64,000 nucleotides of DNA from a bacterium (GCA_963693055.1 OY843751.1:1370072-1434071); one strand, 5' to 3'; shown: positions 15,937-43,689, counted from the first letter of the stretch. Made by a program: numbers and translations. Notes: generated by a model from the letters alone, not told the origin.

Positions 15937-17982
15937 ATGCAACATTCTCTTTTTCGTTTCTTTCTTTTGGGTACTCTATTCTTTTCATTATCTCTTGTTG
16001 CTGGCCCGTCTCAATCGCGACCTTTTACAGTGCATGAACTTTTAGCCATGGAGCGTATTGGAGCCCCTCAGGCTTCACCTGATGGACAGCAAATCGTTTT
16101 TTCCATTCGTAAAACCAATCTTGAAAAAAACAAAGGAGAATATGATCTCTATCTTGTGGATATAAACGGCAATTCTTTCAAAAGGCTGACGACCCATCCT
16201 TCTATTGATACCAGTCCCTGCTGGTCTATGGATGGGCAATGGATTTATTTTCTCTCTGCGCGGTCTGAATTTATGCAGGTGTGGCGAATTAGGCCGGACG
16301 GGGGCGAAGCGGAAAGAGTAACAAGCCTTGACCTGGATATTAACGATTATACAGTCGTTCCTTCTGGCAAAGGTCTGCTCCTTTCCATTGATGTATTCCC
16401 CGGTAAATCCATTCAGGAAACAAGTGAGGTGCTGCAAGCGCATGAAAACAGTAAAGCCACCGGTAAACTTTATAATCAGGCACTGTTCCGTCATTGGGAT
16501 GTGTGGGCAGATGGACGTTTTGCCCATTTGTTTTACCTTGATTTTGAAACAATGACACCTGTTGATCTGATGAGTGACATGCAGGCTAATGCTCCAACTA
16601 AACCCTGGGGGGGAATGGAAGAGATTGCATTTACCCCTGATGAACAAAGTGTCATTTTTACCGCCAAAGATGTGGGTGACCAGTCCGCCTGGTCTACAAA
16701 TTATGATTTGTTCAAGGTACCGCTCGATGGTACCCAGGCCCCGGAATGCCTGACTGCAACAAATAAAGCTTGGGATACCCAGCCGACGTTCTCCCCGGAC
16801 GGAAAAACCCTGGCGTATCTCGCCATGGCCAGGCCTGGCTTTGAAGCAGACCAATACCATATTATGTTGCGGGATTGGCAAACCGGTACTGCCAGAGAAC
16901 TTGGAAGTACCTGGGACCGTTCTCCATCTGCTATTTTCTGGAGTCCGGATGGTAAGATTCTATTTGCGGTTGCCGAAAATCTGGGACAGCTCGCCCTCTT
17001 TGCCATTGATGTAAAGTCAGAAAAAGTAACTCCGGTGATTGAACAGGGAACCATTCGCTCTCCGGTATTTGCGGGCGAACGCATTGTATTTGGACTGGAT
17101 CACTTAAAGTCTCCGGTTGAGCTCTATTCCATACGTCCTGATGGCAAGGACCGACAACAGATCACTCATGTAAATGACGAACTTGTAAAGCAGATTGCCT
17201 GGGGTGAACCAGAACAGTTTACTTTTAAGGGATGGAATAACGAGACAGTTTATGGCTATGTTGTTAAACCAGCAAATTTTGATCCTGCAAAAGAATATCC
17301 TGTGGCATTTTTAATTCACGGCGGACCGCAAGGGTCTTTTGGTAATGATTTTCACTATCGTTGGAATCCACAAGCCTATGCAGGGGCAGGGTACGCCGCT
17401 GTAATGATCGATTTTCATGGGTCTACAGGATACGGACAGGCCTTTACCGATGCTATCCGTGAAAACTGGGGTAGCCGGCCTTTTGAGGATTTGCAAAAAG
17501 GACTTGCCGCAGCCCTGGTGAAATATCCGTGGCTAGATGGGGACAAGGTGGGCGCTCTTGGTGCATCCTATGGAGGCTATATGATCAACTGGATTGCGGG
17601 AAACTGGCCTGACCGGTTCAAGTGTTTGGTCAATCATGATGGTAATTTTGATATTCGTATGGCGTATTACGATACAGAAGAACTCTGGTTTCCCGAGTGG
17701 GAGCATGGTGGTACACCCTGGGAACGTTCTGAAGTTTATGAACTACATAATCCCGTAAATCATGTAGACAAATGGAAAACACCCATGCTCGTTGTTCATG
17801 GTGAACTGGATTATCGTGTTCCTGTCACCCAGGGTATTGGAGCGTTCAACGCTTTACAGCGCAAAGACATTCCCAGTCAGTTCCTCTGTTTCCCGGATGA
17901 AAACCACTGGGTGCTCAAACCTCACAACTCTATCTTGTGGCACAACACGGTGATTGGCTGGTTGGACAAGTGGCTAAAGTAG
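15937..17982 (+). CDS. S9 family serine peptidase (prolyl oligopeptidase / acylaminoacyl-peptidase-like), secreted
   Basis: 681 aa. Signal peptide, N-terminal beta-propeller region, C-terminal alpha/beta-hydrolase domain with GASYGGYM (GxSxG), HGELDYRVP and DENHW catalytic-triad context. AAAGGAGGG RBS 8 nt upstream. Confidence 0.85.
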   Translation: MQHSLFRFFLLGTLFFSLSLVAGPSQSRPFTVHELLAMERIGAPQASPDGQQIVFSIRKTNLEKNKGEYDLYLVDINGNSFKRLTTHPSIDTSPCWSMDGQWIYFLSARSEFMQVWRIRPDGGEAERVTSLDLDINDYTVVPSGKGLLLSIDVFPGKSIQETSEVLQAHENSKATGKLYNQALFRHWDVWADGRFAHLFYLDFETMTPVDLMSDMQANAPTKPWGGMEEIAFTPDEQSVIFTAKDVGDQSAWSTNYDLFKVPLDGTQAPECLTATNKAWDTQPTFSPDGKTLAYLAMARPGFEADQYHIMLRDWQTGTARELGSTWDRSPSAIFWSPDGKILFAVAENLGQLALFAIDVKSEKVTPVIEQGTIRSPVFAGERIVFGLDHLKSPVELYSIRPDGKDRQQITHVNDELVKQIAWGEPEQFTFKGWNNETVYGYVVKPANFDPAKEYPVAFLIHGGPQGSFGNDFHYRWNPQAYAGAGYAAVMIDFHGSTGYGQAFTDAIRENWGSRPFEDLQKGLAAALVKYPWLDGDKVGALGASYGGYMINWIAGNWPDRFKCLVNHDGNFDIRMAYYDTEELWFPEWEHGGTPWERSEVYELHNPVNHVDKWKTPMLVVHGELDYRVPVTQGIGAFNALQRKDIPSQFLCFPDENHWVLKPHNSILWHNTVIGWLDKWLK

Positions 17983-18027
17983 GTTGTAAATAATTGATTC
18001 ACTGCCGGGGGCGTTAGTTAATAAAAT

Positions 18028-18056
18028 TTGCCAGGCACATTTCTAGTGCCTGGCAA
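18028..18056. terminator. Bidirectional rho-independent terminator between convergent genes
   Basis: Perfect 11-bp inverted repeat TTGCCAGGCAC-atttcta-GTGCCTGGCAA between the 15937..17982(+) stop and the 18075..20000(-) stop, with AT-rich flanks. Confidence 0.6.
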
Positions 18057-18074
18057 TTGTAATTCAAACGTCTG

Positions 18075-20000
18075 TTATTTAATCATCATTACTTTTTGTA
18101 TAGAGGAACAATTACCTGCCTGCAAACGCACCAGGTAGGTACCGCTGGGTGCAGCTACCCCTGAATTGGTAGATCCATCCCATTCCACCTGATATTCAGC
18201 GGCGGATTGCTGCTGATTTACCAGTGTTTTAATTTCACATCCGAGTATATCATAAACGATCAGGGAAACATGACTGTCCGTTACCAGTTGATATTTCAAT
18301 GTAGTAGACGGATTAAAGGGATTGGGATAAGCCGCAAACAATTGTGTGGTCATTGGAATTGATTGAACATCTATGGATGTTGTACCAATTTCTGTTTGAA
18401 CTCCGTCTGTACTGACTTCCATCAGACGATAGGTATAACTTGATCCACTGGTTACATTTGCATCGGTTATGCGGTAATGTGACAGGGAGGAGGTTGTGCC
18501 TTGTCCGGTCAGTTCAGAGTGGGTTTGGTAGGATGCGATCTGCTTATAATCGAAATTTTCTGTACTGCGTTCAATGATGAATCCCAGATTGTCTTTTTCG
18601 CAGGCAGTGGACCATGTCAATTCTATAGAGTCTTTATCGTATTTAGCGGTAAAGGATTGCAGCTTGACCGGTAATGCTGTGTCGCTGCCGTTTTGCCATC
18701 CCAGAAAGGGGTAACCGTCATTAATGGTCCCGGAAGGGTCAATGTCCCAAATATCCTGACTGCCATTGGTAATTTCAATACTAAAGTCCCAACCAGCATA
18801 GGTAAATGTGGAAAGCGTTTTCATTTTTTCTGTGGTTTTGGGGGAAGCAGAATTTGTATCGTTTTGTCCTGTGGTTTCAGAATCATAAAAATTTGCACTT
18901 GCTGATATAGTCGTAGCCAGGGTAATGCCACCAGTAACGCTTCCGGTAACTGTACCCTTTGCGTAGCAATAGTGAATTTCGCTTTCCCCGTATACATTAC
19001 AGGCCAGAGCGGTTATCCGGTATGTTCCGAATGTATTTCCTGTTGCATAACAATTGTTAATATCACAATTATCACAATAGCCAATCAATCCACCAATATC
19101 TGCATGGCCAGTAACCTTACCTGTTGCGAAACACTGATTGATATTCGTATCTTTTGTCCAGCCGATCAGTCCACCAAGATAGTCTTGACCACTGACCGCT
19201 CCTGTAGCAGAGCATCTGGTCACTTGGCCATGATTCGTACCTATCAATCCACCTACATTATCAGTGGTGGCATTGACGCTGCCGGAAGCGTGGCAATCTG
19301 TGATTTGCCCGTAAAAACGTCCTGCCAGGCCGCCTATACTGGTGCCATTTTGCACATTCACACTGCTGCTACAGTTACTGATGATGGCATCTACATATAC
19401 GCCACCAATTATTCCTCCGGCAAGTGCGTCAGAACAAGTAACAGTTCCGGATAAAGTACAACCGGATATAGTGGTGTTTTCATAAACAGAACCAACCAGA
19501 CCTCCCACAAATCCATAAGCAGAGATATTTAAGCTTTCCATTTTAATATTATTTAATTCAGCGTTGGTAACATCCCCAAATAAACCGGCATAATTTGACT
19601 CGGGTCTGTTTATATACAGACCCGTGATGGTGAAACCTTGACCGTCATAGGTGCCTTCAAAAGGTGATAAAATAGTGCCAATGGGGCTAAAACCGGCGTA
19701 TCCGCCGTCTCCATCGGGATTCAGGGTTGCGCTTGCAGAGGCGTCAATATTATCGGTTTGTGTAAAGTGACGTGACCAGATAGTTGATGTTGTGCTGATC
19801 CATATCAGATGGTCAAATTCAGAAATAAGATACGGATCATAATATGCACCTGTGCCGGGCGGCTGCGTACCCGCAGCCAATAAAGGGCCTGTAAATGTCA
19901 GAGTAATGCAAAATATAGACAGATATTTTTTACTTTTGAAAAATATTCTGTGGTTTGTGATAAGAAAAGAGTTGATAAAATATGATAATAAAATTTTCAT
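18075..20000 (-). CDS. Secreted GLUG-repeat protein + FN3-like module + T9SS CTD
   Basis: 641 aa. Multiple GGLVG/GGLIG/GGLAG repeats (GLUG motif, as in IgA1-protease-like and Bacteroides surface proteins); module ALPVKLQSFTAKYDKDSIELTWSTACEKDNLGFIIERS; CTD LFAAYPNPFNPSTTLKYQLVTDSHVSLIVYDILGCEIK. Confidence 0.8.
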   Translation of the reverse strand: MKILLSYFINSFLITNHRIFFKSKKYLSIFCITLTFTGPLLAAGTQPPGTGAYYDPYLISEFDHLIWISTTSTIWSRHFTQTDNIDASASATLNPDGDGGYAGFSPIGTILSPFEGTYDGQGFTITGLYINRPESNYAGLFGDVTNAELNNIKMESLNISAYGFVGGLVGSVYENTTISGCTLSGTVTCSDALAGGIIGGVYVDAIISNCSSSVNVQNGTSIGGLAGRFYGQITDCHASGSVNATTDNVGGLIGTNHGQVTRCSATGAVSGQDYLGGLIGWTKDTNINQCFATGKVTGHADIGGLIGYCDNCDINNCYATGNTFGTYRITALACNVYGESEIHYCYAKGTVTGSVTGGITLATTISASANFYDSETTGQNDTNSASPKTTEKMKTLSTFTYAGWDFSIEITNGSQDIWDIDPSGTINDGYPFLGWQNGSDTALPVKLQSFTAKYDKDSIELTWSTACEKDNLGFIIERSTENFDYKQIASYQTHSELTGQGTTSSLSHYRITDANVTSGSSYTYRLMEVSTDGVQTEIGTTSIDVQSIPMTTQLFAAYPNPFNPSTTLKYQLVTDSHVSLIVYDILGCEIKTLVNQQQSAAEYQVEWDGSTNSGVAAPSGTYLVRLQAGNCSSIQKVMMIK

Positions 20001-20146
20001 ACAACATCTCCCTTTCGTTCAAAAGGTTGTCGGTTTGTTATCTATAGCAATATCAAACGTCGAAATTGCTGGAGATGTTTGGGATTATATTCATAAATTA
20101 ATAATAATCCCCCATAAAGGCAACAATGTTTTTAGGGTTGTAGATG

Positions 20147-20770
20147 GGGGAATTTCGACGGATAGAAAAAATTCCCAGACACCGATGAGGTGCCTGGGAA
20201 TAGTAATGTTCTATATGTGAAATAGGGATGGTTTTTATGGAACCTGCGAATTTTTACCACTATTGGGTTTAACCACCAAATAGTCTGTAGCGTTAACACT
20301 GCCATTCATGTTACAGTCAGAGGGATTATAACTCGCTGATCCGCTTTGGCCTTTGACAGTGAGATAGTCGGTCGCGTTTATAATACCGCTGTTATTCGCG
20401 TCTCCACTAAACATACCGTAAATGCCGGTTTCTAACTGTGCAGCGCTGCCGCCGTAATATTTGTCATAGGGTGTTGATTCATCCACGGTAAAATTATAGG
20501 TTGTCAGTGTACCGCTTAAACTCTGTGCTGTGGCGCTCATGATTGCCAAATGATTGCGGTGACGAATGACAATGTAATAGTCGCCCGGTGCCAGACCTGT
20601 GAGGGTGAGGTTGGTTACGGTACCATCGTCCTCAGCCAGATAGCCGTCGCTGCGCAGGATATAAGAGCGGCTGTACACAGCTTCACCATCTACAGTTGAG
20701 CGTAATTCCATACAAACCCAGTCGGTAATGCCTTCGGGGATACTGCCGGCATTACGATTGTCAGAATAGA
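20147..20770. repeat. Near-identical ~0.6-kb duplicated block (copy A) covering the 3' coding end of 20235..22340 plus its terminator
   Basis: 20147-~20770 is essentially identical to 23627-~24250. The encoded C-terminal ~170 aa are nearly identical (NRNAGSIPEGITDWVCMELRSTVDGEAVYSRSY...NSGKNSQVP), as are the 88 bp downstream of the stop. Confidence 0.8.
20161..20200 (-). terminator. Rho-independent terminator of 20235..22340 (inside the duplicated block)
   Basis: Minus-strand RNA forms UUCCCAGGCACC-ucauc-GGUGUCUGGGAA (12 bp, one G.U) followed by UUUUUUCUAUC. Confidence 0.55.
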
Positions 20771-22393: not shown

Positions 22394-23332
22394 TTAATCT
22401 TTGACCAGGCGGATAGAAAATCCGTAAGTAAAACTTTGATTTGAGCGTGTAATCTCTGTATCGCCGTTGTATAATCCTCGCGTCCATGCGGCCTTTTGGG
22501 GATTCCCAGACAAAACATATTGAGTGGATGACCAAAAATCAGTTGATGATCCCAATAGGGAGCTAATTTTATCGAATCGATAACCACCTGGAAGAGCGGT
22601 AAAACGGCTTTTGTTGGTAGCCCCGGTGTTTGGGCTGTCCCAATGGGTTGTTCCTGTTTCTTTAAGTTTCCCTCCGGCCATTGTACCCCCAAGTGTATTT
22701 TGTAATGTGTTCCATTCGTCATCCGTAGGAACATGCCAGCCGTTTGGAGCTATGCTTCTGCTATCATTTACTGCATACCAATTATATAAATAACCGTATG
22801 TTTCAATAAACGTTACAGCCGATGAATAGCCATAACGTGCACCAGTACTTATGTTCTTCCAAGATGTATTATAGTCAACTTTAGGTATTTCGTCACCATT
22901 TCTGTACTGTGTTTCTTTTAAATTCTCAGCCATCCACCACTGGTCGCCAATCTTGACGGTTTTGTACACCGTGCCGTCGTTGCCGGTCATGGTGCTGAAA
23001 AAATAGTAGAGTACACACACTTTGAACTGGCTGCCACTGGTATTGGGATTGTCCGCGTAAAAGTCCCACACAATGTGCTTGTCTGTGCCCGCTGTTATGT
23101 CCACACCAAGGTCGCCGGAAAGGCTGACGCATTTCAGGTCCCATGTTGCGCCGTTGTCGTTAGAGGCTTCGACTGCAATTTCAGTATTATACCCTTGGGG
23201 ATTGCTGAAATCGTAATAGATGTCGACCATGAAATTGCCGTCTGTGCGTTGTGCCACCCGTATGTTGGAAACCTGGGCGAACAGGCAGCCGGTCAGTGAA
23301 ATCAACAATAAAGCAGTGAATAGTAATCTCAT
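22394..23332 (-). CDS. FISUMP-domain (Fibrobacter succinogenes major paralogous domain, TIGR02145-like) secreted protein/lipoprotein, tandem paralog 1
   Basis: TMTGNDGTVYKTVKIGDQWWMAENL...YGYLYNWYAV...APNGWHVPTDDEWNTLQNTLGG...KLKETG...FTALPGGYR...FWSST...AWTRGLYNG...GFSIRLVKD. Lipobox-like LTGC after the signal peptide. Start placed at the second ATG (GAGGAG RBS). Confidence 0.8.
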   Translation of the reverse strand: MRLLFTALLLISLTGCLFAQVSNIRVAQRTDGNFMVDIYYDFSNPQGYNTEIAVEASNDNGATWDLKCVSLSGDLGVDITAGTDKHIVWDFYADNPNTSGSQFKVCVLYYFFSTMTGNDGTVYKTVKIGDQWWMAENLKETQYRNGDEIPKVDYNTSWKNISTGARYGYSSAVTFIETYGYLYNWYAVNDSRSIAPNGWHVPTDDEWNTLQNTLGGTMAGGKLKETGTTHWDSPNTGATNKSRFTALPGGYRFDKISSLLGSSTDFWSSTQYVLSGNPQKAAWTRGLYNGDTEITRSNQSFTYGFSIRLVKD

Positions 23333-23543
23333 TGTTCTCCTCATTCGTTATGTAAAAACCAATGCTTAACTCTAAATACCCGGGCATTGCTATTCCATAC
23401 TTTTTGTAGGAAATGCTTGTTACGGTATCTGCATCTGCATATTTTTATTCCCTCAAAAAGAACAGGCACTGCTGTAGTATTCAGAACCTAATAAAATGTC
23501 AATGTTGGAAAAGTGTTAGATTGAATTTAAGCAATTTCGCAAT

Positions 23544-26934: not shown

Positions 26935-27873
26935 TTAATCTTTAATTAAACGCAGAGAACATCCACATTCCCTGTACTCTTCATCAAATATGACATAAGT
27001 AGCAGCACTGGCTAATAGCATAATATCCGCGAAGAAAGAACGAGATGATGTTGAGGCCCATAGGGATGATGCATTTTCAAGATTTCGAAAATATCCTGAT
27101 AAAGGAGCATCCAAACGGACAAACCGGTCTCCCGCGCCAAGGGCTGTAAATCCGCTTGAATTTGTTGCATTAACATTATAAGAGTTCCAATGCATGGTAC
27201 CCTGTTCTTTAAGTTTGGAACAGGCGTCATTAAAAAGATAGTTTTTTAGCGCATTCCACTCTCCCTTTGAAGGCACATGCCATCCCTCGGGCGCTATTTG
27301 ACGGGCATCATCAACCACAAACCAGTTGTAAAGGTAACCATAAACATTGCCAAGCGAGTCCGAATTGTTATAAGAACAGCGTGCCCCGGTAGACAATCCA
27401 TACCAATTATAATTATTTTTCTCTACAGGTATCGGGTCGCCATTTCTGTATAATGTCTCTTTTAAATTCTCCGCCATCCAAACCTGATTGCCGATTATAA
27501 CGGTTTTATACAGTTTTCCGTCATTGCCCATCATATAGTCATCTCTGGCAGTTAAACGTACTTTGTATTGATTGCCTGAGACATTGGGATTGTCTGCATA
27601 AAAATCCCACACAATATGTTTGTCCGTACCCGGGGTGATATTTCCACCCACATCACCCGTCAGGTGTGTGCACATTAAATCCCATGTCGCTCCGTTATCT
27701 GCCGAGGCTTCAACCAATATGGCAAGCATATTCTCCCCAGAATAAGCTAAATTGTACCAGATATCCGTTATAAATGTGCCGTCGGTGCGCTGCTGCACGC
27801 GCACGTTTGAGACCTGGGCGTACAGGCAGCCAACGGTCAAGAATAATGTTGTTACCGTTGTTAAAAATTTCAT
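26935..27873 (-). CDS. FISUMP-domain secreted lipoprotein, tandem paralog 3
   Basis: MKFLTTVTTLFLTVGCLYAQ, then LYKTVIIGNQVWMAENLKETLYRNGDPIP...YGYLYNWFVV...APEGWHVPSKGEWNALKNYL...GFTALGAGDR...CGCSLRLIKD. Start at 27873 with a GAGGAA RBS. Its upstream intergenic region is about 85% identical to that of paralog 2. Confidence 0.8.
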   Translation of the reverse strand: MKFLTTVTTLFLTVGCLYAQVSNVRVQQRTDGTFITDIWYNLAYSGENMLAILVEASADNGATWDLMCTHLTGDVGGNITPGTDKHIVWDFYADNPNVSGNQYKVRLTARDDYMMGNDGKLYKTVIIGNQVWMAENLKETLYRNGDPIPVEKNNYNWYGLSTGARCSYNNSDSLGNVYGYLYNWFVVDDARQIAPEGWHVPSKGEWNALKNYLFNDACSKLKEQGTMHWNSYNVNATNSSGFTALGAGDRFVRLDAPLSGYFRNLENASSLWASTSSRSFFADIMLLASAATYVIFDEEYRECGCSLRLIKD

Positions 27874-27980
27874 GTTATTCCTCATTGCTGTATCCAGGTC
27901 AGAGCTTTGATCTTGCACACACCGGTAATTGACCATACACTTTCAATAATTGTAACTATATATGACGCACCACAAATGAA

Positions 27981-28916
27981 TTAATCTTTTATTAAACGTA
28001 TTGTACATCCGTGCTTTTTATTAATCAAATAATTATACATAGTATCTGTATTGTAACTCATTGTTAAGCTCCCACCATTAATGCCGTTAACATCTTGTTG
28101 GGCTAACCATATCCAGGCGTCCTCCCATATGTCATTAAAATTACCATCGTCATTTCGTCTTCCGGCCGCTATTGCTGTAAAGCCGCTTTCATTTGTGGCG
28201 GCGGTATTGGGATAATCCCAATGAGCATATCCGGTTTCTTTCATTTTTCCACCTTTCGAACCCCCTAAAAAATCATATAAATCACTAAAATCATAATAAG
28301 TTGGAACATGCCATCCGGAAGGCGCAAGATTACCGGTTGCGACAACATACCAATTATATAAATAACCATAGCTGTTTGTGTAATTTTCATTATTATTATA
28401 CACACACCGGGCGCCGGTTTCCAAAGTGGACCATGTGGAACTGCTGGCTACAACCGGTATACTACTAATACCGTTTCTGTATTTTGTTTCCCTTAAATTT
28501 TCAGCCATCCACCATTGGTTACCAATCTTGACGGTTTTGTACACTTTACCGTCGTTACCGGTCATGGTGCTGTTATAAAAAAACAAAAGACGGACCTTGT
28601 ACTGGTTACCACTGGTGTTAGGATGGTCGGCGTAAAAGTCCCATTCAATGTGCTTGTCCGTTCCCGCGGTAATTCCTTCACCCACATCGCCGGTGAGGCT
28701 AGAGCAAGACAGGTTCCATGATGCTCCATTGTCATGAGAAGCTTCTATTATTATTTCGGCGGTTTTTGTATAAGAATCTCCCTCAAAACCCAGATCATAC
28801 CAGATATCAACCACAAAATTGCCATCTGTGCGTTGAACCACCCGCACGTTGGAGACCTGAGCGTACAGGCCGCCGGTCATAAGGAGGAATGTCATTATTG
28901 TAATTTGAAATCTCAT
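27981..28916 (-). CDS. FISUMP-domain secreted protein, tandem paralog 4
   Basis: VYKTVKIGNQWWMAENLRETKYRNG...YGYLYNWYVV...APSGWHVPTYYDFSDLYDFLGG...GFTAIAAGRR...GCTIRLIKD. Start at the second ATG (GAGGTA RBS). Confidence 0.8.
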   Translation of the reverse strand: MRFQITIMTFLLMTGGLYAQVSNVRVVQRTDGNFVVDIWYDLGFEGDSYTKTAEIIIEASHDNGASWNLSCSSLTGDVGEGITAGTDKHIEWDFYADHPNTSGNQYKVRLLFFYNSTMTGNDGKVYKTVKIGNQWWMAENLRETKYRNGISSIPVVASSSTWSTLETGARCVYNNNENYTNSYGYLYNWYVVATGNLAPSGWHVPTYYDFSDLYDFLGGSKGGKMKETGYAHWDYPNTAATNESGFTAIAAGRRNDDGNFNDIWEDAWIWLAQQDVNGINGGSLTMSYNTDTMYNYLINKKHGCTIRLIKD

Positions 28917-28950
28917 TCTGTACCTCATTATTTATACATTAGCTCAACAG

Positions 28951-29926
28951 TTAGTTCTTTACTAGACAGACCGAATGTCCTTTTCCTTTTTCGTCATAAA
29001 GACGGTAAATATTTAAATTATAACAGAGTATGTAACGTTTCAATGCTTCATTTTCGCCATAGGATGAAGCAGACCAAAAATAGGCACGGATTCTCTTGTC
29101 AATAAAAATGCCTTGAATGTTGGAACAACAACCGCCCGGTGTCGCTGTAAAAAGGCTTACGGCAAAATTAACATCATTTTTTGAAACATCATCTTGTAAC
29201 AAATTTGCACGATCCGCCAGTTTACTACCTTCATCATCTCCGTAATCCAGATTTATTTTTGTCATCTACACTCATACCCAATGCGCGTTCCAGTTCCTTC
29301 CAGTCGGCATCTGTGTGAACATGCCAACCGTTTGGAAAAAAATCATGCGGATTTTCCAGATCCACAACTTACCAATTGTATAAATAACCAAAAGTTGAAG
29401 CATTATCTGGATTATTATCAAAATAACAATAAGCGCCAATATTAATATTAGTCCAATCCTGATTGTTTACTGTGGTTGCTATGGTTGACCCATCGTTATA
29501 ATGCTTTCCCCTTAAATTTTTTGCCATCCACCATTGGTTACCAATTTTTATTGTTGGGTACACATTAGCATCGTAATCCCTCATGGTGTCGGTTAATAAA
29601 AGAATTACACGTATTTTAAACTGATTACCGTTAGTGTTAGGGTTGTTTGTGTAAAAATCCCAAACAATGTGTTTGTCCGTACCCGCTGTGATATCCTCAC
29701 CAGCGTCGCTGGTAATGCTGGAACAATTCAGATCCCAGGTTGTGCCATTGTCGTCAGAGGCTTGAATAATTATTTCGTTATCACATCCTTCGGAATTATT
29801 GAAATCGTACCAGATATCAACTATAAAAGTGCCGTCTGTGCGTTGTTGAACTCTCATGTTGGAAACCTGGGTGAATAGACTGCCGGTTATATTAATTATT
29901 AAAAATATAGTATATAGTGATCTCAT
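28951..29926 (-). pseudogene. Disrupted fifth FISUMP paralog (premature stop after YGYLYNW plus at least two frameshifts)
   Basis: ORF 29369..30067 encodes the N-terminal domain plus the first half of FISUMP (PTIKIGNQWWMAKNL...FGYLYNW*). The continuation FPNGWHVHTDADWKELERALGMSV is in a second frame, and ORF 28951..29265 (FTATPGG...FWSASSYGENEA...SVCLVKN) is in a third. Homopolymer runs A7/T7 lie at the junction. Confidence 0.6.
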
Positions 29927-30053
29927 AAAAATTCTTGTATATTTGAATTGTCTTACAAATAGGCAAGATTCCTGGAAAGATTTAGACGGCATGTTGTAAA
30001 AAAAATTTTTACAACGATTTATTCTTGTTTTAAAATTTACAAAAATAAACAAA

Positions 30054-30103
30054 ACAGTACCAAGCACATATGTCGCAAAAACCAGTACATATGTCGCATT
30101 TGG
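30054..30103 (-). promoter_or_regulatory. Second copy of the ACATATGTCGCA x2 operator-like element, upstream of the disrupted FISUMP paralog and just downstream of the hybrid kinase gene
   Basis: ACAGTACCAAGCACATATGTCGCAAAAACCAGTACATATGTCGCATTTG matches 23544..23594 except for one base. Confidence 0.4.
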
Positions 30104-33112: not shown

Positions 33113-34210
33113 TTATTTCATAAACAATACCTTTTGTACCTGGGAAGTATTTCCAGTCTGCATGCGCACCAGGTAGGTTCCGCTGGGTGCCATTACACCG
33201 GCATCGGTTGAGCCGTCCCATTGGACCGAGTATTGCCCGGCGGTCTGGTACTGATCGCTGAGCAGTTTGATCTGACGGCCTAATACGTCATATACTGCCA
33301 GAGTTACATGGCTGTCTTTTGCCAGATTGTATTTTATATTGGTTGACGGATTAAAAGGATTGGGGTACGCCGTGAATAGCTGTGTGGTTGAGGGGATGGC
33401 TGCTTTAACGGATGTTGTGCCGATCTCTGATTTTTCTCCATTTATATCTATTTCTGACAAACGGTAATCGTAATCTGCTCCTGCAGATATAGTATTGTCT
33501 ATAAAATCGTATTGAGATGGGGAAGAGGTAGTACCTTGTCCGGTCAGTTCTGCATCGTGTTTATAAGATGCAATTTGCCGCCAGCCGGTATTTTCGGATT
33601 TACGCTCAATGATAAATCCCAGATTGTCGGTTTCGCTTACGGTGGTCCATTCTAATTCGACTGTATTGTTGCTGTGGGGCGCGGAAAAGGAGGTCAGTTC
33701 CACGGGCAACGAAGCATCACCTAAAATTAAATCGTCAAACGCAAAGCCACTTAATTCTTCGCTTTTTGTAACAGTAAATGATGTTACATTTGTCCAATTA
33801 AGCGTGACTGTTTGACCCGTTGCTTTAGCAATTGTATCATTTACCGGTGAATTTGATCCACCCGTAGGAGTATATGTCCAGGTACCATCATAACTTCCGC
33901 TTGCGTTAACGGCATATATTGTAAGGATATCTACAGATTCCGAAAAAGTAAAAGTAATTGTCTGAATATTGGTTACGGATGCCATGACAACATTTCCGGA
34001 AGCTCCACCAAAACCAGCAGATGCAAAAAGTTGTATATAACGTCCCCCACCGGCATCCGCAGTAGTTACAGTAACAGTAATATCACTAACCGTTTCCTGA
34101 ACAATAGTTGCCTGAGATTCACCAATTTCTGTTGCGGTTTCCCAGGTAAAAGTTTGTGCAAAAAGTATGAAAGGTAGTAAGAGAAAAAGTGTCAATAACA
34201 ATTTTTTCAT
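33113..34210 (-). CDS. Secreted protein with FN3-like module + T9SS CTD
   Basis: 365 aa with signal MKKLLLTLFLLLPFILFAQ; module ASLPVELTSFSAPHSNNTVELEWTTVSETDNLGFIIERKSENTGW; CTD LFTAYPNPFNPSTNIKYNLAKDSHVTLAVYDVLGRQIK...GTYLVRMQTGNTSQVQKVLFMK. Confidence 0.8.
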   Translation of the reverse strand: MKKLLLTLFLLLPFILFAQTFTWETATEIGESQATIVQETVSDITVTVTTADAGGGRYIQLFASAGFGGASGNVVMASVTNIQTITFTFSESVDILTIYAVNASGSYDGTWTYTPTGGSNSPVNDTIAKATGQTVTLNWTNVTSFTVTKSEELSGFAFDDLILGDASLPVELTSFSAPHSNNTVELEWTTVSETDNLGFIIERKSENTGWRQIASYKHDAELTGQGTTSSPSQYDFIDNTISAGADYDYRLSEIDINGEKSEIGTTSVKAAIPSTTQLFTAYPNPFNPSTNIKYNLAKDSHVTLAVYDVLGRQIKLLSDQYQTAGQYSVQWDGSTDAGVMAPSGTYLVRMQTGNTSQVQKVLFMK

Positions 34211-39185: not shown

Positions 39186-40484
39186 TTACATGCTTCGTTT
39201 GTCGATGACACGTTTGGCCTTGCCTTCACTGCGCTCGATTGTTTTGTGCTCTACCAGTTTGACTTTGACACTGAGTCCCAGTGTGCTGTCAATGTTGTGT
39301 TTGATTTTTGCAGACAGTGCTTCCAGTTTACGGATTTCATCAGAGAAAAATTCATTTTCCACTTCAACCCAGACTTCCAGATTGTCAAGATTATTGACAC
39401 GGTCCACAATCAATTGATAATGCGGTTTGGTCTCGCTCATTTCAAGCAGAACGCTTTCAATCTGAGACGGGAACACGTTAACACCGCGAATGATGAGCAT
39501 ATCGTCCGAGCGACCCAGACATTTTGCCATGCGCACCATGGTACGTCCGCATTCACAGGTCTCGTAATTGAGCACGGTCAGATCGCGGGTGCGGTAACGC
39601 AGCAGGGGGAGTCCCTCTTTGGTGAGCGTTGTAAACACCAATTCACCAATTTCACCCGGGGGAAGGACCTCGAGCGTTTTGGGGTCAATGATCTCGGGAT
39701 AAAAATGATCTTCGAAAACGTGCAAACCTGTCTTGTGCACACATTCAGTGGAAACACCCGGTCCAATGACCTCACTGAGTCCGTAAATATCAATCGCCAG
39801 TATGCCCAGTTTATCTTCAATTTCTTTGCGGATGTTCTCGGTCCAGGGTTCCGCGCCAAAGATACCCACACGCAGGGGCAGGTCTTGTGGAGACAGGCCT
39901 GCTTCTTCCAGGGCTTCGGCCAGATAAAGCGCGTACGAGGGCGTGCACGCAAGCACGGTACTGCCAAAATCTTTCATCAACTGGATCTGACGCTTGGTGT
40001 TGCCGCCGGAAATGGGAATGACTGTTGCTCCGACTTTTTCCGTACCGTAATGGATGCCGAGTCCGCCGGTAAACAATCCATAACCGTATGCGATCTGTAC
40101 AACATCGTCTTTGCCTGCACCGGCACAGTTGAGGGTGCGCGCAACCACTTCGGACCACAGGTTAATATCGCGACGGGTATAGCCAACTACTGTGGGTTTG
40201 CCGGTGGTACCGCTTGAAGCGTGCACACGTACAATATCGCTCATGGGTGCGGCAAACAGGTCGAACGGGTAATTGTCGCGCAGGTCCTGTTTTGTGGTAA
40301 AGGGCAGGTTTTTTAGGTCGTCAATGCTTTTTACATCGCCGGGGTCCATGCCCTGTTCCTGGAATTTTTTGCGATAAAAAGGTACGTTGTAATAGAGACG
40401 TTCAACCATATTGACCAGCCGTTCGCTCTGCACACGGGTGAGCTCCTGGCGGTCCATACATTCAAAATGTTCATTCCAGATCAT
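39186..40484 (-). CDS. paaK: Phenylacetate-CoA ligase family adenylate-forming enzyme (PaaK / F390 synthetase-like)
   Basis: 432 aa. [45 protein letters not shown]...[19 protein letters not shown]... is the classic PaaK N-terminus and AMP-binding motif. Confidence 0.85.
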
Positions 40485-40654
40485 TCTTTTCTCCGGTCAT
40501 TGGTGTGTATATTGAGGAAACGCGTTGTATTCCGGTAGTTTGATTTGCAGTTATAAAATAATTGAATCTATTGGATTATGCAAGAAACTTTTTTTCTACG
40601 TGAGAAGAAAGATGTGAGACGGGAGAGGTGAAAAACTTGACCTGATTGGGGGGA

Positions 40655-40740
40655 GATTTGCCTGGACATTTGTCCTGATTCTTCAAGAATTGCATGGGAC
40701 AAATGTTTCATTTGAATATTCTGCGATGCAGGAATCTGTG
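40655..40740. repeat. Partial copy 1 of a structured ~140-bp MITE-like intergenic repeat
   Basis: GCCTGGACATTTGTCCTGATTCTTCAAGAATTGCATGGGACAAATGTTTCATTTGAATATTCTGCGATGCAGGAATCTG is homologous to the 3' two-thirds of the elements at 41733 and 42699; it lacks the 5' TIR. Confidence 0.55.
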
Positions 40741-40985
40741 AAATGGGTTTCTATGATGGAGGATGATAAAAATGAATATTTTTTTCTTTTTGGTGAAAAT
40801 TTATTGTTTGTTTAACGGATAATTGTTAATTTATATAACGATAAATGGGGCAGCTTTTCATTTTTCATCAAAAATATTGTCTATCAATTTATTCAAGTGT
40901 CTTTATCTACAACATAATGTCTTTTTAATAGTACTAAAAATTTGAGTGTATTGCTTTGAATGCATTCAAAAATCAGGAGTTTTGG

Positions 40986-41609
40986 ATGAAAAAAATCTTT
41001 TTTGTAATCTTGTTTTTTTCAGTTATTGTCAATTCCAGTTTTGCGGAATACAAGTTTGGTGTTGTTGCGGGGACAAATATAGAAAAGATGATTTTTGAAA
41101 AGAGAACTATTTACAAGCATCACAATCCTTATGGTTATTCTTATGGGATTTACTTTGAGAGAGCGTTAGGAGAACGTTTCTCTCTACGTTCTGAATTGTC
41201 TAATAATAAATCAACCATAAAATTTGAAAATTTTACAACACAAGGCGATCATTATAAAATTTTTATTGAAAAAGATTATTTGTCAATACCAATTCTTTTC
41301 AAATATCACTTTTGGAAATCTTTGAATATATCTGGTGGTTTACAGTTAAATTGGAATCAAGATATTAATTATACATTTGAAGAAATGTATACGAATAGAG
41401 CAATCAAATCTTTTAGTATTACATCCAAAGTATCAAAGTTTGATACATATATTTGTATTATTTTAAGTAAAGATTTTTTTCTCTTTAATAAGAATTTAGA
41501 TATTGGCATTCGGATATTAAAAGGAATAAATAAAATAGAAGAAAACTGGTACTTGGATGATAAAGCCAAATATTTACAATTTCAATTGTTGTTCAGTTTG
41601 CAGTTGTAG
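40986..41609 (+). CDS. Outer-membrane beta-barrel protein (OmpA-like porin family/opacity-type small barrel)
   Basis: Signal peptide MKKIFFVILFFSVIVNSSFA with an AGGAG RBS; amphipathic beta-strand pattern and a C-terminal ...LQFQLLFSLQL motif ending in aromatic/hydrophobic residues. Confidence 0.5.
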   Translation: MKKIFFVILFFSVIVNSSFAEYKFGVVAGTNIEKMIFEKRTIYKHHNPYGYSYGIYFERALGERFSLRSELSNNKSTIKFENFTTQGDHYKIFIEKDYLSIPILFKYHFWKSLNISGGLQLNWNQDINYTFEEMYTNRAIKSFSITSKVSKFDTYICIILSKDFFLFNKNLDIGIRILKGINKIEENWYLDDKAKYLQFQLLFSLQL

Positions 41610-41732
41610 AGCATATAAATTTAGTTTGGTACATTGATGATGGTTGCCTTGCACCTCCGAGGATACCGGGCAATTGGTTATACTTTTAAAATAAATATGA
41701 TCACACGGCATGTCTATGTTGTGCTGAATATA

Positions 41733-41870
41733 TGATCGCCCGGTAATCCGCCAGCTGGCGGATGCAGGACGGAATATTTACCAGGACATTTGTCCTGATA
41801 CTCGGAAAATTGCCTGGGACAAAAATCCCGCTTTAATTTTCCGCGGGGCAGGGATCTGCATCGCGATCAA
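41733..41870. repeat. Copy 2 of the MITE-like structured intergenic repeat (terminal inverted repeats TGATCGC...GCGATCA)
   Basis: Starts ATGATCGCCCGG and ends CTGCATCGCGATCA. Internal palindromes: CAGGACA-tt-TGTCCTG, GGGAC(n)GTCCC, and GCGATGCAG-n4-CTGCATCGC degenerate. Confidence 0.6.
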
Positions 41871-41970
41871 TGACGCACCAGGAAGAAATGGAGGCTTTTA
41901 AGCAGATCAACAATACTGTGACATCTGCTATAGTTAAAGAGAAATTATTATTATATACAGGATGGTAGTA

Positions 41971-42690
41971 ATGAGAAAAGTATTTTTTTTAGTGATAATT
42001 ATTCCATTGTCATTGTTCTCTTATGTAAATGATGGCCCGCCAAAAAATGGTTATTTTGGTGGTTCAAGAGTTGCAAATTATTGTCATTTTAATATTCCTT
42101 TTTACATGAGTTATTTGGGGGACAATAATAATGCTTTTTCATTATTATGGCCCGGACTTGCCAGTCCGATAGGTCAAATTCAATATACTAAAAGATATAA
42201 TGAAAATTCTAAATTGGGCATAGGGCTAGGGCTCCCTTTTATTTCAATATATGCTGATAGAGACTTTAATATCAGTAAAAATAAAAAAATTAATACCAGC
42301 TTTTTGGTTGGGATACCATTCTTCTCACTATCATCAAAAGTGTTCTACCCCTTTGATGATGTTGGGAGATATAAGCAAGGAGTTTCATTTAATTATATCT
42401 ATTATTCTGGATATTATAGCTGGTCTATGGTTGGAAATATGGATATTTATCCTGGATCACAAGTATTATCTTTAAATTATGAAGGTTTGATTACTCCAAA
42501 GAACAATGGCAAAGTTAATTTGTTCTTTTCTATTGGAGCTAATTATTTATTTTTGAGCTATGCGATTCGTCAAGCTGATAATGAAAATTATGGATTCAAG
42601 AATTTCGTGAATTTATATGATTATGCATTATCTGATGTTTCCTGGGATAAAAATATATGTTGGAGCCTGTCATTTGGAATTAATTTTTAA
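41971..42690 (+). CDS. Hypothetical secreted protein (possible outer-membrane beta-barrel)
   Basis: Signal peptide MRKVFFLVIIIPLSLFS; beta-rich composition with alternating aromatic residues and a C-terminal ...WSLSFGINF; no recognisable catalytic motif. Confidence 0.45.
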   Translation: MRKVFFLVIIIPLSLFSYVNDGPPKNGYFGGSRVANYCHFNIPFYMSYLGDNNNAFSLLWPGLASPIGQIQYTKRYNENSKLGIGLGLPFISIYADRDFNISKNKKINTSFLVGIPFFSLSSKVFYPFDDVGRYKQGVSFNYIYYSGYYSWSMVGNMDIYPGSQVLSLNYEGLITPKNNGKVNLFFSIGANYLFLSYAIRQADNENYGFKNFVNLYDYALSDVSWDKNICWSLSFGINF

Positions 42691-42698
42691 AAAGAACC

Positions 42699-42847
42699 TG
42701 ATCGCTCAGATTATTATGATCGCTCGGTATATTTATTCCGGGCGGAATATTTACCAGGACATTTGTCCTGATACTCGGAAAATTGCCTGGGACGAATGTA
42801 ATGTCCCGCTTGAATATTCCGCGATGCAGGGAGCTGCATCGCGATCA
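42699..42847. repeat. Copy 3 of the MITE-like structured intergenic repeat
   Basis: Starts (C)TGATCGCTC...ATGATCGCTCGG and ends CGCGATGCAGGGAGCTGCATCGCGATCAG (10-bp stem, 4-nt loop). About 90% identical to copy 2 over the core TTTACCAGGACATTTGTCCTGATACTCGGAAAATTGCCTGGGAC. Sits between convergent genes. Confidence 0.6.
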
Positions 42848-42855
42848 GTTTTTTC

Positions 42856-43689
42856 TTAATTCTCCGAATTAATGTCGAAAATCCAGTTTCTTACAAGCTC
42901 CAGGTAAGCTTCGTATCCCATAATATCCGGGATGTCGGTGTGGTTGGCATCCTGGACCAGTACCATGGATTTGGGCTCAGGTGCGTTTGCGTACACCACT
43001 TTGCCATTGTCGCGATAGCGTACAAAATCGTCTTGAGCGCCATGGATCAGTAGAAACCGGGTATTGATGTTTTGGATCTGCTTTGCATTGTCAAACGAAC
43101 CGGTTGTGAGCCACTGCGAAGGAATATCCAACACCGTGCTGCCCTGGGTTAACGAGTTTGCTGATGCAAATGGAGACTCGGCAATCAAACAGCGGGGGTC
43201 TACTTTTTGTCCCGCAAGATAGATTGAGGCTACATTCCCCAGCGAATATCCGTAAATGCAGAGTGAATCCGCGGGTACGTTCTGCTCGTTCATGACATAG
43301 TTGAGTGCAGCGTCACTATCCTGATAGAGTCCCGTCTCGGAAGATTTTCCCTCGGACTTGCCGTATCCGCGATAATCATAGATAAATATATTCACGCCCA
43401 GTTCATACATCAGCATGACACGGTCCCAATATTCATCAATATTGTGCTTGTTGCCGTGACAATAGAGAATGGTAATGCCGGGACGCTCACCATTGGATTC
43501 TACCCAATAGCCGTAAATTTTGTTGCCGCCGCTGTTGAGAGACACTTCCTGCAGATGGTCTTGTGGAATGGAATTGCCGGGCAGTTTGTATTCGTCCAGT
43601 GATTCGGTGTTGAATAAAAATCCGTCCAGTTCACAGGCGGTAAATATTGTTGAAAAGAGTAGTATTAAGAGTAGGGAAAGCTTTTTCAT
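42856..43689 (-). CDS. Alpha/beta-hydrolase fold lipoprotein (serine hydrolase, GYSLG nucleophile elbow)
   Basis: Start reassigned to MKKLSLLLILLFSTIFTAC (lipobox) at 43689. ILYCHGNKHN...YDYRGYGKSEG...IYGYSLGNVAS...HGAQDDFV. Overlaps the upstream gene by 4 nt (ATGA). Confidence 0.7.
   Translation of the reverse strand: MKKLSLLLILLFSTIFTACELDGFLFNTESLDEYKLPGNSIPQDHLQEVSLNSGGNKIYGYWVESNGERPGITILYCHGNKHNIDEYWDRVMLMYELGVNIFIYDYRGYGKSEGKSSETGLYQDSDAALNYVMNEQNVPADSLCIYGYSLGNVASIYLAGQKVDPRCLIAESPFASANSLTQGSTVLDIPSQWLTTGSFDNAKQIQNINTRFLLIHGAQDDFVRYRDNGKVVYANAPEPKSMVLVQDANHTDIPDIMGYEAYLELVRNWIFDINSEN

Follow-up and report, generated by a model that had tools for sequence, protein, structure and literature searches.

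Enterobacterial repetitive intergenic consensus elements (ERIC, or IRU) are imperfect palindromes of ~127 bp in transcribed intergenic regions of Enterobacteria, usually located in transcription units downstream of genes; in some species their copy number is low. The BOX, RUP and Correia (CREE/NEMIS) repeats of streptococci and neisseriae are structured and resemble miniature inverted-repeat transposable elements (MITEs). These repeats can be co-transcribed, alter mRNA stability and provide promoters, and Correia elements have 26-bp terminal inverted repeats (TIRs), a TA duplication and hundreds of copies. Repetitive extragenic palindromic (REP) units are abundant sequences of 20–40 nt that share a conserved 5' tetranucleotide and flank the gene of a Y1 transposase, the REP-associated tyrosine transposase (RAYT); REP units and the bacterial interspersed mosaic elements (BIMEs) act as recombination substrates and as protectors of mRNA 3' ends. 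attC-site clusters that lack integron-integrases (CALIN) consist of same-strand attC sites without a nearby integrase, intI being optional (Cury et al., 2016; PMC4889954). Here, we describe a structured repeat of ~140 bp in a 64,000-nucleotide stretch of bacterial DNA (GCA_963693055.1, OY843751.1:1370072-1434071; hereafter the window, numbered from its first letter), where three copies lie around two small open reading frames, ORF1 and ORF2. With moderate confidence, we regard it as a lineage-restricted, non-coding, structured extragenic repeat of the general kind of REP/BIME, ERIC, BOX, Correia and other MITE-like elements.

Three copies of a structured repeat in the window

Reading of the sequence and a repeat finder revealed three related segments on the same strand, A, B and C, together with an extra 5'-end motif. 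The fold modules P0–P5 named here are defined further below.

40648–40745, + strand: copy A, a relic (nhmmer E 4e-29; covariance model 100 bits)
41698–41708, + strand: extra 5'-end motif TGATCACACGG, found by pattern search 24 nt ahead of copy B
41733–41869, + strand: copy B, full length with P0–P5 (nhmmer E 3e-45; covariance model 139 bits; fold −57.4 kcal/mol, z −4.6)
42699–42847, + strand: copy C, whose full element starts at 42717 (nhmmer E 5e-43; covariance model 128 bits; fold z −6.1)

An nhmmer profile of the three copies, run against the window, matched 41733–41871, 42699–42849 and 40648–40745, all on the + strand and with the E-values given above. No fourth copy was found in the 64 kb, the remaining matches having E ≥ 0.4 apart from palindromic self-hits on the reverse strand, and a covariance model search returned the identical list. 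Copies B and C share an exact core of 40 nt (0 expected from shuffles) and are 88.9% identical over 108 nt and 87% over the core. Copy A is 79–83% identical to them where it can be aligned, and 71% across the whole core. The copies are spaced by 1120 and 973 nt, with a single co-oriented ORF in each gap. Direct repeats, profile and covariance model therefore all recover the arrangement given in a preliminary description of this DNA, that of three copies around two genes, in a divergent, a tandem and a convergent gene setting. The core identity of ~90% reported there holds for B and C, but not for A.

The repeat recurs at other loci of a sister genome

The syntenic locus of the sister metagenome-assembled genome (MAG) CAXXMD01, termed L008, was located via a 99%-identical PaaK. 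Its flanks are 91–97% identical to those of the window, and it holds six copies, all in one orientation. A strict core pattern, run against one genome per species in 185,579 species, gave a single match, L001, on a 3.64-Mb contig of the same MAG. The pattern fits only 4 of the 10 known copies and missed all six in L008, so that this genome-wide scan undercounts. The solo copy at L001 (L1; 3203–3339, E 3e-26) is complete; it starts 39 nt past the stop codon of a hydrolase gene and is followed by the ubiE-menF-menD genes, all of them on one strand. A third CAXXMD01 locus, L015, carries a paralogue of ORF2 (P0124; 43% identity, 31% GC), and ~470 nt downstream, on the same strand, lies a relative that has diverged from the element (21 bits, local E about 5e-6). 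Its 5' module is of the copy C type, its P2 helix reads GGTGGAA/TTCCGCC, CAGGACACATGTCCTG occurs as a single palindrome, and its end is ...GGCGATCA. The known total is thus ten copies and one diverged relative. A purely local triplication, named beforehand as the outcome that would deflate the observation, does not account for the solo copy at the unrelated L001 or for the relative at L015.

Two patterns searched in the JGI metagenomes gave 0 matches and then 4 at chance level, with no true members. IMG/VR yielded chance 16-mers only, and blastn of plasmids and phages returned nothing relevant. The element was absent from more distant relatives of the PaaK locus, and the contigs of remote ORF2 homologues contained no true members. 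For the window, Rfam gave nothing at the gathering threshold, its matches at E ≤ 10 over 40500–43000 being chance-level without meaningful coverage of the element, and a literature search for the core palindrome found nothing relevant. Judged from these searches, the family is real and dispersed, but apparently low-copy and confined to one lineage.

One JGI contig, Ga0315327_10236644 (L011), which is unrelated and AT-rich, ends in a 17-bp tandem array of CTGGGACAAATGTCCCA repeated 6.7 times (1033–1146). The array unit carries the same 14-bp palindrome as helix P4 of the element, which may be chance, as ~10 pattern matches are expected, or may reflect a binding motif common to both.

A modular element with a multi-branched fold

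The modules were defined on an alignment (A2) of the ten copies. The outermost helix, P0, is formed by TGATCGC/GCGATCA, and P1 (CCCGG/CCGGG) closes ATCCGCC-AGCT-GGCGGAT. P2 (CGGAATATT/AATATTCCG) encloses two hairpins, P3 (CAGGAC-ATTT-GTCCTG) and P4 (GGGAC-AAAT-GTCCC); a middle segment of 17 nt exists as two alleles, and P5 is a GC-rich 3' hairpin (CGCGATGCAG-NNNN-CTGCATCGCG). The core from P2 to P5 is present in every copy. The 5' module (P0/P1) is dispensable: in sister copy 3, P0 is fused to P2; sister copy 4 and copy A are without the module altogether; and copy C carries a variant form. The element is non-coding and ranges in length from ~112 to 150 nt. Its left and right ends are precise against four differing flanks and read TGATCGC...GCGATCA in six full copies and TGATCGC...GCGATTA in L1; an inverted repeat of 7 bp is short for a MITE.

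Copy A retains the 5' arm of P2, P3 as CTGGACATTTGTCCTG, the middle segment, P4 as GGGAC..GTTTC, the 3' arm of P2 and the 5' arm of P5. With P0, P1 and the 3' arm of P5 missing, it is truncated at both ends and not at the 5' end alone, as first thought. Its orthologue in the sister genome (L008 9705–9802), 94% identical over the core, still carries a degenerate 3' end, which the window has lost. Copy B is bounded by TGATCGC (41733–41739) and GCGATCA (41863–41869). Its 10-bp hairpin carries two mismatches (CGCGGGGCAG) and its GGGAC/GTCCC hairpin is shrunk to GGGA/TCCC, so that two of the nested palindromes ascribed to each core are eroded in this copy. The extra 5'-end motif ahead of copy B also precedes copies 5 and 6 of L008. 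Copy C starts 8 nt past the ORF2 stop codon with an 18-nt partial 5' module (42699–42716), followed by the full element (42717–42847); this 5' end is a tandem duplication of 18 nt × 1.9, reading TGATCGCTCAG at 42699 and TGATCGCTCGG at 42717. Copy C has a variant P1, a perfect 10-bp P5 hairpin and GCGATCA at 42841–42847. The 7-bp ends noted earlier for B and C thus exist in both and recur in the sister-genome copies, and the view of the repeat as discrete, non-coding and highly structured, with short terminal inverted repeats, is supported.

Compared with shuffles, the + strand folds with z-scores of −3.0 (A), −4.6 (B) and −6.1 (C). The − strand of the full copies folds about as well (z −4.7 and −6.9), because the DNA is palindromic. 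Both the minimum-free-energy and the consensus folds are multi-branched. The 12-mers of P3 and P4 (GGACATTTGTCC and GGACAAATGTCC) are exact reverse complements, which makes a 12-bp long-range helix a possible alternative, and RNAalifold favours this helix over separate hairpins. In the specified structure, 91.5% of the pair cells hold standard pairs, compared with 32–44% when partners are slid. Changes on both sides affect five pairs; shuffles give 2.3, and a value of 5 is reached in 22 of 500. The solo copy L1 shows compensatory changes from C-G to A-U in P1 and from U-A to C-G in P2, and copy C has retained the outer P1 stem despite a replaced inner hairpin. One-sided changes are mostly transitions that give G.U on the + strand (24 G.U versus 9 A.C cells), an excess which suggests that this strand folds, either as RNA or as single-stranded DNA. 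The 11-mer ATTTGTCCTGA and GGGAC are invariant in 10 of 10 copies.

Two low-GC genes lie between the copies

The genes bracketed by the copies have 27% and 30% GC, and the flanks 42–53%.

39186–40484, − strand: PaaK-type ligase, a flanking gene
40986–41609, + strand: ORF1, 207 aa, 27% GC, between A and B; Pfam OMP_b-brl_2 (E 8e-11)
41971–42690, + strand: ORF2, 239 aa, 30% GC, between B and C; Pfam-less, with a beta-barrel-like model
42848–42912, − strand: 3' end piece of the hydrolase gene (~65 bp), duplicated with the element in the sister genome
42856–43794, − strand: alpha/beta hydrolase, a flanking gene whose 3' end abuts copy C

Among 5.8 billion proteins, the only homologues of ORF1 are itself and its sister-genome allele (L008 8803–9432). 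The two alleles are ~96% identical over the first 48 aa and ~40% beyond, within flanks of 92–97%. This pattern, in which the predicted signal peptide and first strand are conserved, indicates allelic replacement or diversifying selection on a putative surface protein. ORF2 has no Pfam match. In the same 5.8 billion proteins it falls into one 90%-identity cluster and finds only itself and one sister-genome allele, and an exhaustive HMMER search of 1.84 billion proteins gave a family of 7 representatives. ORF2 and its relatives have ~230–250 aa, a signal peptide and a C-terminal ...W-N-x-x-x-G-x-x-F motif (...GINF in ORF2) that is beta-signal-like. An AlphaFold2 model based on the family alignment is all-beta with ~10 strands (pLDDT 58, pTM 0.60; pLDDT 32 from the single sequence), and its best Foldseek matches in the PDB are all outer-membrane barrels, none of them significant (E > 0.04). 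Signal peptide, C-terminal motif and model together make ORF2 plausibly an outer-membrane protein. The initial assignment of both genes to outer-membrane proteins is thus backed by Pfam for ORF1 and is plausible, but not provable, for ORF2. As ORF1 and ORF2 are unrelated, a local tandem gene duplication is ruled out. Two short members of the ORF2 family, P0126 and P0129, resemble fragments of a P0124-like gene and may be a pseudogenised paralogue in the genome from which the window comes.

No integrase or transposase gene was found among the annotated neighbours within ~20 kb of the locus, and the window contains no tRNA. The organism is assigned to the FCB (Fibrobacteres–Chlorobi–Bacteroidetes) group from the gene content of the window, with type IX secretion system (T9SS) C-terminal tails, Fib_succ_major and FlgD_ig, and from the best named relative of PaaK (82%), which belongs to a Calditrichaeota MAG. 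Four or five tandem or nearby Fib_succ_major (Fibrobacter succinogenes major domain) paralogues occur at 26935–30067 and 22394–23344 of the window; they adjoin FG-GAP/dockerin and T9SS-tailed proteins and form a second paralogue-rich surface-protein region.

Exchange between copies in the two genomes

The sister locus has an extra gene, encoding a 635-aa T9SS esterase, between copies 3 and 4; the window lacks this gene and two copies. Window copy C is a 3/6 hybrid: in its 5' part it runs collinear with sister copy 3, and in its 3' part and the adjoining flank it follows sister copy 6. Copy B is nearest to sister copy 5 (94%) and not to its positional orthologue, copy 2 (83%). At L008 4782–5536, Tandem Repeats Finder detected a 296-bp unit repeated 2.6 times in tandem. 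Within this unit, the element is joined by 65 bp from the 3' end of the hydrolase gene, by a 29-bp palindrome in perfect form, which carries a T-rich tail, and by a further 37 nt; L008 5078–5248 and 5374–5536 match window 42910–42735. Three tandem sister copies have no intervening gene, and the two genomes also differ by an inverted gene.

The middle segment of sister copy 6 is itself chimeric, which shows that breakpoints vary. Variable breakpoints, and the inclusion of part of a neighbouring gene in the duplicated unit, speak for gene conversion and homologous or unequal recombination between direct repeats, and against exchange at a fixed site. Comparison of the two loci shows the direct copies as substrates for homologous recombination and gene conversion, with gene gain or loss, the 296-bp tandem duplication and mosaic copies as the products. 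Through such recombination between copies, the locus is a hypervariable island of small accessory genes of outer-membrane type.

A second strain-variable spot lies ~6 kb from the element locus. In L008, three tandem Por_Secre_tail/FlgD_ig paralogues (16270–20683) precede a transposase gene of the rve type, where the window has one such paralogue (33113–34210).

Companion hairpins and repeats

Between ORF1 and copy B lies a further palindrome.

41644–41695, + strand: degenerate REP-like palindrome of 29 bp (TTGCCCGGCACCTCCGAGGTGCCGGGCAA) with a T-rich tail behind it, the likely ORF1 terminator

The degenerate palindrome (41644–41673 in the window) is also present at L015 9940–9965. Perfect TTGCCCGGCACCTCCGAGGTGCCGGGCAA copies are found at L008 5041–5069 and 5337–5365, where they are terminator-like with stems of 13–16 bp, and at L015 10984–11012. 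In three copies, the palindrome goes along with the element's 5' side, and window 41644–41869 matches L008 5365–5141 at 93%. By its distribution, it looks like a REP-like element in its own right, or a family of terminator hairpins, beside small genes of the outer-membrane-protein type. A U-tract (ATCAGTTTTT) follows P5 only in copy C and the three sister copies that share its flank; B, L8_2, L8_3 and L1 have none. The earlier argument that the element is not simply a terminator is thus borne out, since ORF1 has its own terminator-like hairpin before B and the U-run comes only from the flank shared with C.

Another MITE-like repeat, of ~155 bp with ~52-bp TIRs at 79–80% complementarity, occurs at L015 10764–10916 and 11018–11170, in two copies 253 bp apart on the downstream side of the ORF2 paralogue. 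Structured intergenic repeats of several families thus occur in this lineage, and they share intergenic regions as in BIME-like clusters. The divergent intergenic region between PaaK and ORF1 also contains a heptanucleotide tandem repeat (GACGTGA/GAGACGG; window ~40603–40632). The array has 9.9 units in the sister genome (L008 9819–9887), and the window is short by ~35 nt of it. It could be a simple repeat of the phase-variation type ahead of the outer-membrane-protein gene.

Interpretation as a lineage-restricted extragenic repeat

At three independent loci, the element follows closely on a co-oriented gene, namely on ORF2 (copy C), on the hydrolase gene at L001 (L1) and on the ORF2 paralogue at L015. 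This position, the kept fold with its slight G.U excess and the strong end hairpin suggest that the element is transcribed within a 3' untranslated region (UTR) or an intercistronic RNA. Once transcribed, it would fold into a stable multi-hairpin block, which may act as a 3'-end protector or a weak terminator, by analogy with REP and ERIC. The initial spread could have occurred by transposition in trans, or by duplication together with neighbouring genes. The effect that can be demonstrated here is that the copies provide dispersed homology, which makes the island of outer-membrane genes plastic.

Several points weigh against this interpretation. Transcription with the 3' UTR of the upstream gene, or as intercistronic RNA, is most likely, but it is inferred from the features just listed. 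The copies are few, in contrast to the frequent abundance of the classical REP and ERIC families, and the DNA inspected amounts to ~150 kb of two genomes. Covariation is weak, not significant by stricter measures, and comes nearly entirely from the divergent copy L1. When counted as events, the G.U excess drops to roughly 15 versus 7 pair columns and is only suggestive. The invariant ATTTGTCCTGA and the reverse-complementary 12-mers of P3 and P4 could mean a protein-binding DNA site. Finally, the cassette-like layout, in which repeat, single low-GC ORFan and repeat follow each other in the same orientation, is explained by a passive repeat only via local duplication.

The repeat adds a clearly delimited family of structured extragenic repeats from a poorly studied, uncultured lineage of the FCB group. 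It also offers a two-genome example of repeats that drive the gain, loss, duplication and allele replacement of genes for small outer-membrane proteins, which are likely targets of phages or predators. Such loci mimic integron cassette arrays, so that mis-calling is possible.

Alternative explanations

We consider it unlikely that the element is a genuine MITE, that is, a non-autonomous element mobilised in trans via its TGATCGC...GCGATCA ends, with the local cluster arising by secondary duplication. The element is small and non-coding, with discrete ends and a 7-bp TIR of the TG...CA type, and both the solo copy in the unrelated housekeeping context of L001 and the diverged copy at a third locus are in keeping with mobility. 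So are the truncated relics (copy A, sister copies 3 and 4) and the presence, in the same genome, of the MITE-like family with 52-bp TIRs. However, a target-site duplication, which had been proposed as a check, is absent in four independent flank pairs, the solo copy included: ATA/ATG (B), TTA/GTT (C), ACC/GTC (L8_3) and TTG/AGT (L1) show no direct repeat. The TIR is very short, and no transposase with matching TIRs, likewise sought, was found in ~150 kb of the two genomes. The only candidate seen, the rve element of L008 (from 20707), has ends unrelated to the repeat and was rejected as a parent insertion sequence. The nine hot-spot copies of the window and L008 all have one orientation, and three loci are known in the sister MAG; the strict-pattern scan of its assembly added one extra locus only, which suggests few copies, and no members were found in the other genomes or metagenomes scanned. 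Strain differences are recombinational, with crossovers within copies and the 296-bp unit, and not precise insertions or excisions. Taken with the lack of a transposase within ~20 kb and the low copy number, these features leave the MITE label used in the preliminary description unsupported.

A similarly small probability attaches to a functional structured RNA tied to the small outer-membrane-protein genes, such as a small RNA derived from the 3' UTR, a processing or stability element, or a cis-regulator, with an invariant AUUUGUCCUGA loop/stem. The strong fold z-scores, the 91.5% of paired cells, the compensatory changes in L1 and the preponderance of G.U over A.C on the gene strand are all compatible with such an RNA, although covariation is too thin to demonstrate selection on structure, and the reverse strand folds equally well (z −4.7, −6.9). 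The downstream position next to a co-oriented gene at three loci is suggestive, and two of these genes are ORF2-family paralogues only 43% identical, which would make the link between gene and element old; the solo copy, however, follows an unrelated hydrolase. In some copies, the GC-rich terminal hairpin is followed by a U-run. Truncated relics nevertheless persist in both genomes (copy A and L8_1), three tandem sister copies have no gene between them, and there is no Rfam match.

Less probable again is a double-stranded DNA module for protein binding, in which a dimeric protein would bind the half-sites TTTGTCC...GGACAAA as operators or architectural sites and so regulate or insulate the genes nearby. 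This idea draws on the most conserved letters, ATTTGTCCTGA and GGGAC, which are invariant in 10 of 10 copies and do not covary; on the fact that GGACATTTGTCC and GGACAAATGTCC are reverse complements; and on the same 14-bp palindrome in the 17-bp tandem array of the unrelated metagenome contig L011. Yet the partner arms have changed almost exclusively by transitions, with G.U pairing preserved on one strand, a bias that a duplex site does not need. Hairpins are likewise preserved in P1, P2 and P5, the adjacent genes include no regulator, and the L011 match could be chance, given ~10 expected pattern matches.

We likewise see only a slight prospect of a cassette system, analogous to attC/CALIN, that uses the folded copies as its recombination sites; an ORF with its downstream repeat would be the mobile cassette, and a recombinase other than IntI would be encoded elsewhere. 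The locus does have the layout of a CALIN, with at least two same-strand sites within 4 kb separated by cassettes, though it shares the layout only. Dyad-symmetric repeats of ~130 bp in the same orientation alternate with single short co-oriented ORFans of 27–30% GC, against 42–53% in the flanks, and cassette content differs between the sister genomes, with an inverted gene and ORF-less units. A solo site exists elsewhere (L001), the ORF2 paralogue at another locus also has a related element downstream, and the slight G.U bias suits a single-stranded folded substrate. Against this, an R-box search on both strands, with boxes 50–160 nt apart, found no RYYYAAC...GTTRRRY pair in or around any copy (window 40500–43000, L008 4700–10100, L001 3001–3600); the whole window holds 8 such pairs. 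The fold is multi-branched, where attC would be a single bulged hairpin; a tyrosine recombinase is absent within ~20 kb, and the window has no tRNA. Crossovers within copies vary in position, and the 296-bp unit takes in 65 bp of a neighbouring gene, which fits homologous or illegitimate recombination. A canonical attC was rejected, because the R boxes are absent and there is no integrase within ~20 kb. The more specific proposal of an undescribed, integrase-independent cassette system, in which folded sites and an unknown recombinase capture, shuffle and delete small low-GC outer-membrane-protein genes, is the least probable of those considered here. If true, it would mean that a cassette system generates surface variation in an uncultured bacterium of the FCB group. 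The importance of the locus would be much greater if it held a dedicated recombination system, or a functional RNA tied to the Pfam-less ORF2 family.

Other candidates were tried and set aside: a Bacteroidetes-type promoter (gACATTTG as the −7 box TAnnTTTG) shows no enrichment ahead of the window's genes (3 sense versus 3 antisense, 45 genes); a small ORF in the element, called as a 39-aa gene in L008, has no start codon in B and is broken by frame-disrupting indels among copies; an invertible segment between the reverse-complementary 12-mers is contradicted by the two middle-segment alleles, which are not mutual reverse complements; and a known RNA family finds no Rfam match, a hammerhead-like CUGAU..GAAA failing by eye for want of stem II.

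Comparison with known systems

In the searches made, the element has no sequence similarity to anything outside its lineage. From attC/CALIN arrays it takes the appearance of same-strand structured repeats parted by single co-oriented ORFans, with strain-variable content, no nearby integrase and a solo site. It differs in having no R''/R' boxes, no single bulged hairpin and no fixed breakpoints, and in the parts of a neighbouring gene included in the duplicated units.

Like REP and BIME, the element is extragenic and palindromic and clusters in 3' intergenic regions with repeats of other types; one companion is a REP-like palindrome of 29 bp, and the two inverted 12-mers of the element resemble a REPIN doublet. 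Unlike REP, BIME or REPIN, the element is ~140 nt long and multi-branched, with only 10 copies in ~150 kb; a conserved 5' tetranucleotide was not seen, nor was a RAYT gene of the Y1_Tnp type among the annotated neighbours.

BOX, RUP and Correia elements are likewise 100–160 bp long, modular (compare boxA-B-C), bounded by terminal inverted repeats, intergenic, and often located beside surface or virulence genes. In contrast to Correia, the TIR of the element is 7 bp, there is no duplication, and it is known from a handful of loci. ERIC/IRU match it in size, extragenic location, a long imperfect multi-stem fold and lack of coding capacity, and their internal insertion and deletion variants parallel the modular 5' end seen here. 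They differ in sequence and in phylum, the present element coming from an FCB-group MAG; it is, moreover, multi-branched with a separate 3' hairpin, and its direct repeats are clustered around accessory genes. The flanks of the element lack the target duplication of a MITE and its sequence lacks the core boxes of attC; in function and architecture, it resembles ERIC, BOX and Correia-type elements.

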